Shown piece by piece: positions 30,001 through 33,000 of a stretch of 64,000 nt of DNA. The stretch's first letter is position 1; every line of letters begins with the position of its first letter. The stretch spans positions 1,713-65,712 of the forward strand of contig JBKHDI010000007.1 of the NCBI GenBank assembly GCA_046541415.1, read 5' to 3'. Source of the DNA: Phycisphaerae bacterium. GTDB taxonomy: Bacteria > Planctomycetota > Phycisphaerae > SM23-33. The position numbers were made by a program.

Positions 30001-33000
30001 GGCGATACGACCTGCTCGACCAGCTGTGGCTGGCCTATCTGGCCGTCATCTGGGTCGGGGCCTTCTTCCCCATGACCCTCCAGATCGCCGCCGGCACCGC
30101 CGCCGTCCGCGCAAGCTACCTCGAAGCTGCCAGCGTCTGGGACGCATCACCTCTGCAGCGCCTGACCAAAGTCATCCTGCCGGCAGCCCTGCCGTCGATC
30201 CTCTCCGCCCTGCGCCTGGGGGCCGGAATCAGCTGGCGCGTCATCATCGCCGCCGAGGTCTTCCCCGGCACCCGCGGCGGGTTGGGCTACATGATCGTCA
30301 ACGCCCAGGCGGGGGCCGAATTCCAGTACGCCTTTGCCGCCATCCTGGTCATCGCCGCGATCGGCCTGTGCTTCGACGCCATTCTGGCCCTGGCCGCCCG
30401 CCGCTTCGGCCGCTGGCAGGTGCAGCAGCGATGAAAGACGCACCAGAGAAAATCGATATCCGCTACCAGATGGTGGGGCGGGTGTTCCACGATCCCCAAC
30501 GCGGGCAGGTCCACGCGCTGCAGGAGATCGACCTGACCTGCCAGGCCGGCCAATTGACCTGCGTGCTCGGACCCAGCGGCTGCGGCAAGACCACCCTGCT
30601 TCGCCTGGCCGCCGGACTCGACAGGCCCACCACCGGCCGGGTCCAGCTGGCAGGGGCCGACGTTGACGGACCGACCGGCGTGGCCGCCCTGGTCAGCCAG
30701 GAAGGGGATCTGCTGCCTTGGAGAACCGTTCTGGCCAACGCCGAACTGGGCCTGGAAATCCGCGGCATCGGCCGCGCCGACCGGCGCCGCCGCGCCCTGC
30801 GCGCCCTGCGTCGCGTCGGTCTCGATGCAGCCGTGGCCAAAGCCCCCGTCCACACCCTCTCCGGCGGCATGCGGCGACGCGTCGCCCTGGCCCGTGCCCT
30901 GGCCGCGGACGCCGAAATCCTGCTGATGGATGAGCCTTTCGCCGGTCTGGACGAACCGACCCGCCACCGCCTCCAGGCCGAACTCTCGCAACTCTGGCAG
31001 GACGACCGCCGCACCGTCCTCTTCGTGACACACAACATCGAAGAGGCCGTCTTCCTCGCCGACCGCATCGTCCTGATCTCCGCCGGCCGCTGCATCGATG
31101 AGTACATCCCGGACCTGCCCCGCCCCCGCGACCGCCTGTCCCGCGCCTTGCTCGACTGCCTCTTCGACCTCCGCCGCCGCCTGCGCGGCCATTGAAAGCC
31201 TTCCGCCAGCTGCGCCTGACGCGGCTGAGCTCACCCCGTTGACGCGGGCTGTTTCTTTGCCACCCGGGCCTGCAGCAGCAGGTAGAGCTTCTCCGTCGGC
31301 TCGTGCATTCCGTCCGCCGGATGCAGGACGCTCCGATATCCGGCAGTTGCCCCCTGATGACCGTCCTCCCAGACCGCGGCAATGCGATACCAGTTGGCCG
31401 GCAACTGCAGCCAGACCGCCGCGCCATTCCGCAGCGAGACCGCTTTCTCGATCTCGTGGATCAGCAGAATCTGCGGCTGGTCCTTCGGGTCCGGTTGGGA
31501 GGCTACGTGCGGATGCAACTCCAGGCGGATCGACCCGCCGTCTTGCGATACGAGCGGCCGGACCCGAGCCATCGTGCCCAGGTTCACCTTCACGACCACC
31601 GGATCCTCTCCGTTCGCCAGAGCCACAGAAGCCACCTGGCCGATCCGGATGTAGCCGCTCTGGCCGTCGATCAGTGTCATCGGCGGCGCTGCAAGAAGCT
31701 TGATGCCTTCGACCGCCGAAAGCCGCTCGACCAGCGCCTTGGACTGTTGAGCGGTCAACATCTGCACGCCTTCGCTCGGTTGGCCGGGCAGGGTCGGCAG
31801 GGTCGCATCGGCGGGAAGGCGGATGAATCGCGCTTCGACATCCACCAGGATCCGGCCGGCCCGCATCTCCGCGAGCAGCTTCTCGATCTGCGAGAGGACG
31901 GCAGGTTCCTGCCGGACAATCAGCCTGCCGCGTCGCCATTCAATGCCCGTCCGGCCATCTGCCCAACTGTCCGGCTCGATCTGGCGGATCCGGTGTATCA
32001 GAGCGTCGACCTGCGGGCCTGGCTGGTCACCCTTTGCCTCGGCGGGGCCTTGACCCGTTCCATGCGGATCGGACAGGCCCCCGGGCGGCTTGAAGTCCGG
32101 CGGGGCGACCAGTCCCATCCCGACCAGGTCATAGCTGCGGGTCTGGACTCCCAGCACCTGTCGTCGTCGGACCGACCGGATGCTTTCGACGATCCGCAGT
32201 TCGGCAATGTCAGACAGGCGGACCTCGCTGCCGTCCGGCAGTGTCTTGATCACTGTCTGCTCGAAACGGTCGGCCTTCTGCCCCTCGCTCAAAGCCTGTC
32301 GGACCTCGGCCGCGGTGACTCCGAGGGCTAGCAACTGCTCCGGATCGACCACGATCTCGGGCGACGGACCCGAGTCGAGAACGCGATCCGACGCAATCGG
32401 CGGCCCGGGCGGAGCAGCCTGCACCACGTGGGGCCCCTCTGCCGCGGCGGGCAGGTCATCGGCCGGTATGGCCTGCCGAATGCGGGCGAGCAGTTGCTCC
32501 TCAGGCAGGTCCTGCTCGTGCGTCAATCGCAGATGAAGCCGGGACATCCCCTGACCGCTGATCGATCGGATCTCCGAGACACCTTCGACCCTCTTGACTG
32601 CCTGCTCAACCGGGGATGTCACCTGCCGTTCCATCTCCAGCGGCGCCGCTGCTGGCAGCAGCACCGTAACCTCCACCCATGTCTCGGCCTCGCCGGCCGG
32701 GGCCCAAGTGGATGGTATTTCCGCAACCGGCGGGGAGGCGGCGGCTTCCGGTTCCGGTTCCGGTTCGGATCGACAGCCCCAGCCGATCAACGCTACCAGC
32801 AGGGCTGTGGCAAGAACCAACCCGACCCAGCCAACGCTGCGGACGGTGGGGGCGGATCGCCCCGTCAGCAGGCGACGGATGCGCCCGACCGTCGAGCCGC
32901 CGCTTGCTGCTGCTGCCGCCGAAGGCGCCGGCGAGAGCCTCTGCAATTCCAGCGACTGCAGCGACCGCGCCAATTGCAGTCGGCTGCCGATGGCCTCGGC

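Follow-up and report, generated by a model that had tools for sequence, protein, structure and literature searches.

The stretch of DNA analysed here, a window of 64,000 nt from a Phycisphaerae bacterium (assembly GCA_046541415.1, contig JBKHDI010000007.1, positions 1,713–65,712 of the forward strand), carries the gene of a membrane-bound sensor protease, P0001, which is directly preceded by a blaI-like gene coding for a winged-helix repressor; both reading frames overlap by 14 nt at the start of the sensor gene (Table 1). P0001 is a member of the M56 family whose extracytoplasmic head, the C-terminal 514 residues (365–878), consists of excerpts of an RND permease, namely the subdomains PN1 and DN, and of a secretin, and it is neither a permease nor a bona fide secretin. 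Above the respective Pfam cutoffs the genome has one single Penicillinase_R gene, the neighbour of P0001, and one single M56 protein, P0001 itself. The pair is the only BlaI/BlaR1-type switch of this genome, regulated proteolysis being presumed by analogy to the known systems.

Table 1. Features of the blaI-P0001 locus (coordinates refer to the window, residues to P0001; TM, transmembrane segment; pLDDT, predicted local distance difference test)
Feature	Position	Strand	Basis
Sensor-protease open reading frame (P0001), 878 amino acids	31231..33867	-	Open reading frame call
Shortened secretin beta-domain, residues 672–872	31252..31854	-	Profile versus GspD, Foldseek
Secretin N3-like domain, residues 575–671	31855..32145	-	Profile A3 versus GspD; secondary structure of the model
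DN (funnel/docking)-like subdomain, residues 495–572	32152..32385	-	NCBIfam, MdtB profile (193–272)
PN1 porter-like subdomain, residues 395–491	32395..32685	-	Pfam ACR_tran, NCBIfam, MdtB profile (residues 53 to ~150), Foldseek
Acidic, proline-rich tether, residues 366–394	32686..32772	-	Predicted disordered, pLDDT <50 in both models
Cys365 (in GWGC), immediately past TM4	32773..32775	-	Invariant Gly-Cys column, alignment A1
BlaR1-type membrane core, TM1 to TM4	32776..33813	-	Hydropathy, motifs, Pfam Peptidase_M56 (68 bits), family profile
E282, downstream Glu	33022–33024	-	Within segment aligned to BlaR1 NEVEAD
HELAH zinc motif, residues 241–245	33133–33147	-	Aligned with BlaR1 HEYAH
Periplasmic loop L2 (TM2–TM3), ~67 residues, 71–137	33457–33657	-	Hydropathy
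blaI-like winged-helix repressor gene, 153 amino acids from GTG start	33854..34315	-	Pfam Penicillinase_R, E 3e-24, 86 bits
Operator candidate ACGAATACTTTCGT, proximal, in overlap with the likely -10	34336..34349	-	Sequence read
TTGACA box (likely promoter element)	34365–34370	-	Sequence read
Distal operator candidate ACGAATTCCTTCGT, palindrome ACGAA-N4-TTCGT, just upstream of TTGACA	34379..34392	-	Sequence read

The pump-derived part of the head is homologous to the PN1 and DN subdomains of RND pumps (AcrB, AcrD, MdtB, MexB, CusA) by sequence as well as by fold. Residues 395–489 match positions 40–134 of the 1021 positions of Pfam ACR_tran with an E value of 6e-12 and 44.6 bits (gathering score 28), and the NCBIfam RND models yield two collinear matches, 396–491 to 40–136 and 527–560 to 238–270, with an E value of 2e-10 for RND_permease_2 on the PN1 part. 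A BLASTP comparison with one of the genome's own RND pumps gives a single collinear alignment with two large deletions (E 3e-13), and a profile of six module sequences aligns with its positions 30–196 to the chain residues 53–272 of MdtB (E 7e-15). Compared with MdtB, ~33 residues are gone at the first part of PN2 and ~16 residues at the DN beta-hairpin, that is, the inter-protomer hairpin; the DN-like subdomain closes with a conserved R-x-x-R-R strand. In the AlphaFold models the pLDDT is 85–93 for PN1 and 80–93 for the folded blocks overall. When the model of the module alone, in which ~40 of 221 residues are disordered, was submitted to Foldseek, the top 50 matches were all RND pumps (E 2.5e-10, probability 1.00, TMq 0.40–0.46), among them AcrD, CusA, MexB-type pumps, MtrD, AcrB, CmeB, and OqxB.

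The module is nevertheless far from a complete pump. PN1 and DN are the only RND subdomains present in P0001, whereas PN2, PC1, PC2, DC, and the DN hairpin are absent, no TM is found past residue 365, and the twelve-TM architecture with the proton relay of an RND permease is not seen. With the membrane domain, these subdomains, and the hairpin missing, the module is not a transporter, and trimerisation in the manner of AcrB is not to be expected. That RND loops fold without the membrane domain is known from the engineered AcrBper (PDB 5EN5 and related) and from the AcrD fragment 4R86, which are also among the top structural matches. These are, however, laboratory constructs comprising both loops or a whole loop, whereas P0001 carries a natural and much smaller PN1-DN excerpt.

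The C-terminal half of the head shares the N3 domain and the beta-domain with the secretins GspD, PulD, InvG, PilQ, and pIV. P0001 alone reaches 18.4–20.7 bits with Pfam Secretin, which is under the cutoff of 27.5. The match becomes clear with the family: a profile of 12 sequences (A3) aligns to GspD (5W68) with an E value of 5e-16 and covers N3 plus the beta-domain, a Secretin match with E ≤0.01 is found in 7 of the 12 relatives in this alignment (best 1.7e-15), and the relatives P0049, P0120, and P0005 are above the Pfam cutoff. For N3, the A3 positions 91–143 (P0001 644–695) align to GspD 51–105, and for the beta-domain the positions 159–322 (P0001 711–872) align to GspD 180–346, up to the last strand. 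Foldseek with the model of the whole periplasmic part returns GspD, PulD, InvG, and pIV at a probability of 1.00 besides the RND matches. The N3-like domain is interrupted by a disordered Pro/Gly-rich loop (~586–617, low pLDDT in the model); a weak UBact match at residues 601–633 falls into this loop and was dismissed as a chance match. In contrast to the secretins, P0001 has no N0–N2 and no S domain, the C-terminal motif of the type VPxLxxIPxLGxLF is degenerate, and the module is joined to an inner-membrane protease. In addition, ~59 residues are missing after the first secretin strand, where P0001 696–710 stands in place of GspD 106–179; we take this stretch to be the hairpin extending to the lip at the outer membrane.

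Thus, the parts that a first-pass annotation of this DNA had read from the sequence between 31231 and 32700, i.e., residues ~390–878 of P0001, as AcrB PN1-like, AcrB docking-domain-like, and secretin N3- and beta-domain-like are borne out by the profile searches given above and by the structural alignments with Foldseek. The pump-like segments quoted there also lie in one open reading frame (VEVTV...HLRL, 398–448; PEIVV...RQAL, 503–526; FEQTV...IAEL, 535–557).

The N-terminal part of P0001 is a membrane protease core as in BlaR1. Hydropathy reveals four hydrophobic segments (TM1 ~19–41, TM2 49–70, TM3 140–160, TM4 343–364), the TM1–TM2 loop is rich in lysine and arginine, the gluzincin domain on the cytoplasmic side is bounded by TM3 and TM4, and the domain that follows TM4 is outside. 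A profile of P0001 and six relatives aligns with its positions 19–348 to residues 6–317 of the solved BlaR1 (8EXS/8EXP; E 2e-19), and the residues H241, E242, H245, and E282 are invariant in the alignment of these sequences. The NEVEAD segment of BlaR1 presumably holds the third zinc ligand, E242 in BlaR1 numbering. To judge from these alignments, the zinc site of P0001 is intact and the four-TM topology of BlaR1 is kept. The periplasmic loop L2 is rich in Gly, Ser, and Pro and longer still in the ortholog P0003, and because it is so long, Pfam M56 matches only over profile positions 103–263. In BlaR1 the L2 loop touches the sensor domain.

Taken together, P0001 resembles BlaR1–BlaI and MecR1–MecI from Staphylococcus aureus and Bacillus licheniformis (PDB 8EXP–8EXT) in the adjacent winged-helix repressor gene, in the four-TM M56 gluzincin core with HExxH and a downstream Glu, in the extracytoplasmic C-terminal sensor, and in palindromes over the promoter of the gene pair, which are operator candidates here. 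In contrast to BlaR1, P0001 lacks the penicillin-binding domain, which is class D beta-lactamase-like, and the head is made of RND PN1-DN and the secretin-like module instead. Pfam does not find a Transpeptidase domain in P0001, and the NCBIfam equivalog blaR1_generic covers only the residues 140–290 with 47 bits versus a cutoff of 400. Thus, we consider P0001 a signal-transducing protease of the M56 family and not a beta-lactam sensor.

An exhaustive HMMER search with residues 380–878 among 1.84 billion representative proteins retrieved, besides P0001, only two proteins that cover both periplasmic modules. P0003 (899 amino acids) has the same M56, PN1-DN, and secretin-like architecture as P0001 and its gene lies directly behind a Penicillinase_R gene, the other neighbours being unrelated to those of P0001. 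P0004 (540 amino acids) consists of both periplasmic modules without M56; at its N-terminus it has a signal peptide followed by LAGC, a canonical lipobox. Three further proteins of 211–288 amino acids (P0036, P0045, P0073) are lipoproteins of PN1-DN alone; their automatic annotation at the source reads 'efflux RND transporter permease subunit' or 'AcrB'. Word-index homology searches, for which the C-terminal half and profile A1 served as queries, were nearly empty, so that the exhaustive search was needed. Among its matches, proteins in which M56 is joined to the secretin-like module but the pump module is lacking are common (P0019, P0049, P0075, P0120–P0122) and usually lie behind a blaI gene. 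These fusions of Planctomycetota and Verrucomicrobiota have M56 and the secretin-like module in common with P0001; the RND PN1-DN module is found only in P0001 and P0003. The first-pass annotation was therefore right in treating M56–secretin fusions as a known kind in planctomycetes, and the fusion with AcrB fragments, which was unfamiliar to it, is indeed very rare, with two proteins among the representatives searched.

P0001 is known only from few metagenome-assembled genomes and metagenomic contigs. That the fusion is an assembly chimera or results from a frameshift can be ruled out, as a second, independent assembly encodes a protein with 877 of 878 residues identical and as the ortholog P0003 has the same architecture. 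A fragment from another assembly shows few substitutions, which are mostly conservative. Judging from these sequences, P0001 is a real gene under constraint.

How the head was acquired can be read from the junction behind TM4. In alignment A1 the Gly-Cys after TM4 of P0001 and P0003 superposes on the lipobox cysteine of the four lipoprotein relatives, and the motif GWGC is shared exactly by the two orthologs, which are only ~40% identical in the adjoining module. Because of this alignment it is most likely that the sensor head stems from a lipoprotein that was captured. Both deletions of the PN1-DN module, in PN2 and at the DN hairpin, are common to all six modules, and in a tree with 15 pumps the six modules lie on one side of a branch with a support of 91/93. 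This is consistent with a single origin, the tree being built on short and divergent sequences with P0004 as a long branch. We suggest that an M56 gene was fused to a whole lipoprotein gene, whereby the region of the signal peptide would have merged with TM4 and the cysteine would have been retained. The anatomy of P0001 and its origin by capture of a lipoprotein are, taken jointly, highly probable. What is new is that a PN1-DN domain stands on its own and was recruited by a sensor of the BlaR type, which is a rare variant of the known M56 fusions.

The lipobox-like LIGWGC (residues 360–365) noted at first pass thus stands in so far as its Gly-Cys is invariant and aligned with true lipobox cysteines, as in the free relatives P0004 (LAGC) and P0073 (FAGC). 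It is not canonical, as GWGC departs from the consensus [LVI][ASTVI][GAS]C with Gly at -3 and Trp at -2. P0001 is also not recognised as a lipoprotein, the motif being internal, after TM4 of a polytopic protein, and not at an N-terminal signal peptide. Cys365 is therefore better read as the leftover lipobox of the captured lipoprotein than as an evident cleavage site, as far as the sequence can tell. An internal translation start that would yield a separate lipoprotein was also considered and ruled out, as neither ATG nor GTG occurs in frame from residue 304 to TM4.

A cysteine right after TM4 is also present in two of the M56–secretin-like fusions, P0049 (VLTSC, a canonical lipobox) and P0121 (LALGC), and is lacking in P0075, P0120, and P0122. 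The two cysteines are a hint that M56 genes captured lipoprotein genes recurrently.

The promoter region upstream of the blaI-like gene, which has an alternative ATG three codons past its GTG start, contains a likely -10 element, AATACT, with a spacer of 18 nt to the TTGACA box, and the two candidate operators. In the 4.07-Mb genome the palindrome ACGAA-N4-TTCGT occurs at three sites versus ~1.4 expected; two of the three are at the blaI promoter and the third, on contig C21, lies within an open reading frame. A search for exact matches to this palindrome hence found no credible further site in the genome and points to no regulon beyond autoregulation. Downstream of P0001 follows a convergent operon of an ABC transporter, so that the transcription unit comprises blaI-blaR only. 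No gene for a beta-lactamase or a PBP2a-type target is found near the pair.

The architecture might give a hint how the sensor works. We suggest that the state of the periplasmic arm would be changed by contact with a protein or structure of the envelope or by oligomerisation of the arm itself, that the protease thus activated would cleave the BlaI-like repressor on the cytoplasmic face, and that cleavage would lead to derepression of at least the blaI-P0001 operon. This chain of events, proposed by analogy to BlaR1, appears to us somewhat probable, whereas our confidence in any specific cue is low. In AcrB, PN1 is located at the core of the trimer and DN is part of the funnel or docking domain, the access pocket is the cleft between PC1 and PC2, the deep binding pocket is located where PN2 faces PC1, and the DN hairpin, which the trimer needs for its assembly, locks the neighbouring protomers (PMC8277102). 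As PN2, PC1, PC2, and the hairpin are lost, neither the drug pockets nor the trimer lock of AcrB are kept in P0001. Since only the trimer-core and funnel subdomains remain and none of those forming the pockets, the pump-derived module, on present sequence evidence, most likely serves for protein contacts or as a scaffold in a sensor of the envelope state and not as a drug receptor.

Several points weigh against this interpretation. The operator search gave no target beyond the own promoter, so that the output of the switch is not indicated by it, and the signal, the cleavage of BlaI, and the regulon are proposed by analogy only. The loss of the hairpin speaks against an AcrB-like trimerisation and does not show what might replace it. 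The model of the whole periplasmic part has a predicted template modelling score of 0.52, and the arrangement between the domains is uncertain. Conserved gene neighbours that might hint at a partner are lacking for the mini-lipoproteins. Finally, the gene pair is absent from a genome of the same genus and from 90 of 92 genomes of the family; it is thus accessory and could be marginal in function.

The first-pass annotation had considered a sensor that detects drugs. In such a sensor the AcrB-derived module would bind pump substrates in the periplasm and thereby switch on the protease, which would be in line with the true homology of the module to multidrug and metal RND pumps and with the response to small molecules that is classical for BlaR1-type sensors. 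However, the access and deep pockets of AcrB reside in the very subdomains that P0001 does not have, and PN1 lies at the trimer core (PMC8277102); with the pocket-forming subdomains and the hairpin absent, AcrB-style drug sensing is unlikely. Moreover, no efflux genes are linked to the operon or to the free lipoprotein relatives. Sensing of drugs is thus not supported, and we regard it as very improbable. Alternatively, in line with the assembly state of envelope channels that was also considered at first pass, the head might monitor assembly by mimicry: PN1-DN would imitate the docking face of an RND pump, the secretin-like part a protomer, or both, and the sensor would report unassembled components, i.e., free periplasmic adaptors, outer-membrane factors, or factors of secretin assembly. 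In fact the head is made solely of parts of trans-envelope machines, and DN originates from the pumps' funnel or docking domain (PMC8277102). On the other hand, the gene neighbourhoods do not indicate any partner, and the gene is very rare and patchy, although RND pumps occur in nearly every genome of a phylum sample of 401 genomes. We consider such a monitor unlikely.

It could also be imagined that an oligomeric, secretin-like ring in the outer membrane is tied to the protease in the inner membrane, with a ring of the RND module replacing N0–N2. In the beta-domain, 162 residues align collinearly with GspD up to the last strand, the Foldseek probability is 1.00, and two long disordered tethers (366–394 and ~586–617) could span the periplasm. 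Yet the residues missing after the first strand are presumably those of the lip hairpin, the S domain is lacking, the C-terminal secretin motif is degenerate, the Pfam score is under the cutoff, and BlaR1 in the solved structures, which we take to be a dimer, fits poorly with a ring of 12–15 subunits; a device spanning both membranes is thus quite unlikely. Another possibility is that P0001 is a split precursor, in which Cys365 is lipidated and a cut by signal peptidase II frees a lipoprotein like P0004, which would then signal non-covalently to the M56 core. The invariant Gly-Cys aligned with true lipoboxes, the GWGC retained in diverged orthologs, the similarity of TM4 with its Arg-rich N-flank to a lipoprotein signal peptide, and the canonical boxes after TM4 of some M56–secretin-like fusions (LTSC in P0049) would agree with such processing. 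But the Gly in position -3 and the Trp in position -2 do not agree with the consensus, the cysteine is missing in the family members P0075, P0120, and P0122, TM4 is needed by BlaR1 anyway, and processing inside a polytopic protein would be unusual. This we hold to be the most improbable of the alternatives.

Compared with the contact or scaffold domain that we favour, a more far-reaching proposal is that PN1-DN constitutes an autonomous family of periplasmic domains which was released from a polytopic transporter, is spread as a lipoprotein, and docks on trans-envelope machines, that is, on adaptors, outer-membrane factors, or secretin-type rings. When combined with M56, it would report the assembly or occupancy of these machines to a BlaI-type repressor, possibly after a split at the conserved cysteine. 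In this full form the proposal is speculative and rather doubtful.

To our knowledge, BlaI/BlaR1-type switches are understood for the sensing of beta-lactams only, and many M56 proteins carry other heads with no known signals. P0001 shows unusually clearly how such a head was acquired, as a whole lipoprotein was most likely captured and its lipobox cysteine is still present. Subdomains of the RND loop can occur as soluble domains of their own and may thus play a role other than in transport. Should the module bind components of efflux or secretion machines, the sensing of the envelope state would become tractable through it in Planctomycetota, a phylum whose regulation is little known. On present evidence the importance of this rare accessory gene is mainly evolutionary and structural. 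We did not find a paper on M56–AcrB or M56–secretin fusions in the searchable literature; the combination of PF05569 and PF00873 on P0001 is already present in the automated Pfam annotation.

The pair of periplasmic modules is found in 2 of the 92 genomes of the family, in the source genome as a fusion and in G345 as the free lipoprotein P0004. In the sample of the class (401 genomes) G345 is the only genome besides the source genome that carries the pair, and none of the 401 genomes of the phylum sample does. The gene of P0004 lies on a contig of ~3.5 kb (C137, locus L013) between a gene for a PEP-CTERM protein and a fragment of a tyrosine recombinase, which may indicate a mobile or variable region. 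The mini-lipoproteins P0036, P0045, and P0073 are found in unrelated housekeeping surroundings, in which genes for RND pumps, adaptors, or M56 proteins are lacking; P0073 (L055:5276–5867) follows right after a DUF433/PIN toxin–antitoxin pair and precedes dapA in two Phycisphaerae metagenome-assembled genomes.

The genome of the same genus that lacks the gene pair, G274, retains the right flank (L064, G274:C33:8000–19200), namely a small RNA (sRNA) and the genes for a YHS protein, an anti-sigma factor, and an ECF sigma factor. In place of blaI-blaR a different ABC ATPase and an S26 signal peptidase precede the sRNA, and within the genus the DNA on the left side of the sRNA varies. As the ABC ATPases are only 31% identical, the left flank is not orthologous and a clean insertion site cannot be defined.

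Among the relatives of the C-terminal half, free secretin-like modules without M56, annotated as hypothetical proteins of Planctomycetota, are the most frequent. P0005–P0016 and similar proteins of ~610–660 amino acids comprise two tandem modules of N3 and a shortened beta-domain, and proteins with a single secretin-like module have ~320–370 amino acids.

A scan of the phylum with the profile of the mini-modules was swamped by ordinary RND pumps. Short ACR_tran matches of 110–320 amino acids from the exhaustive HMMER search were considered as candidates for free modules and rejected, as those inspected are truncated N-termini of pumps with TM1. The phylum scan yielded only one further locus, in G497 (contig C104), where two TM-less lipoproteins with the lipoboxes ASGC and CASC are encoded in tandem (L065:4850–5725 and 5850–6845, both on the plus strand). 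Both contain a nearly complete N-terminal periplasmic loop of an RND pump, PN1, PN2, and DN, with matches to the ACR_tran profile positions 42–210 (83 bits) and 38–307 (104 bits). In the tree they form a clade of their own among the pumps (100/99), and the PN1-DN modules are not their sister group; in Planctomycetota, RND loops thus seem to have become free lipoproteins on more than one occasion.

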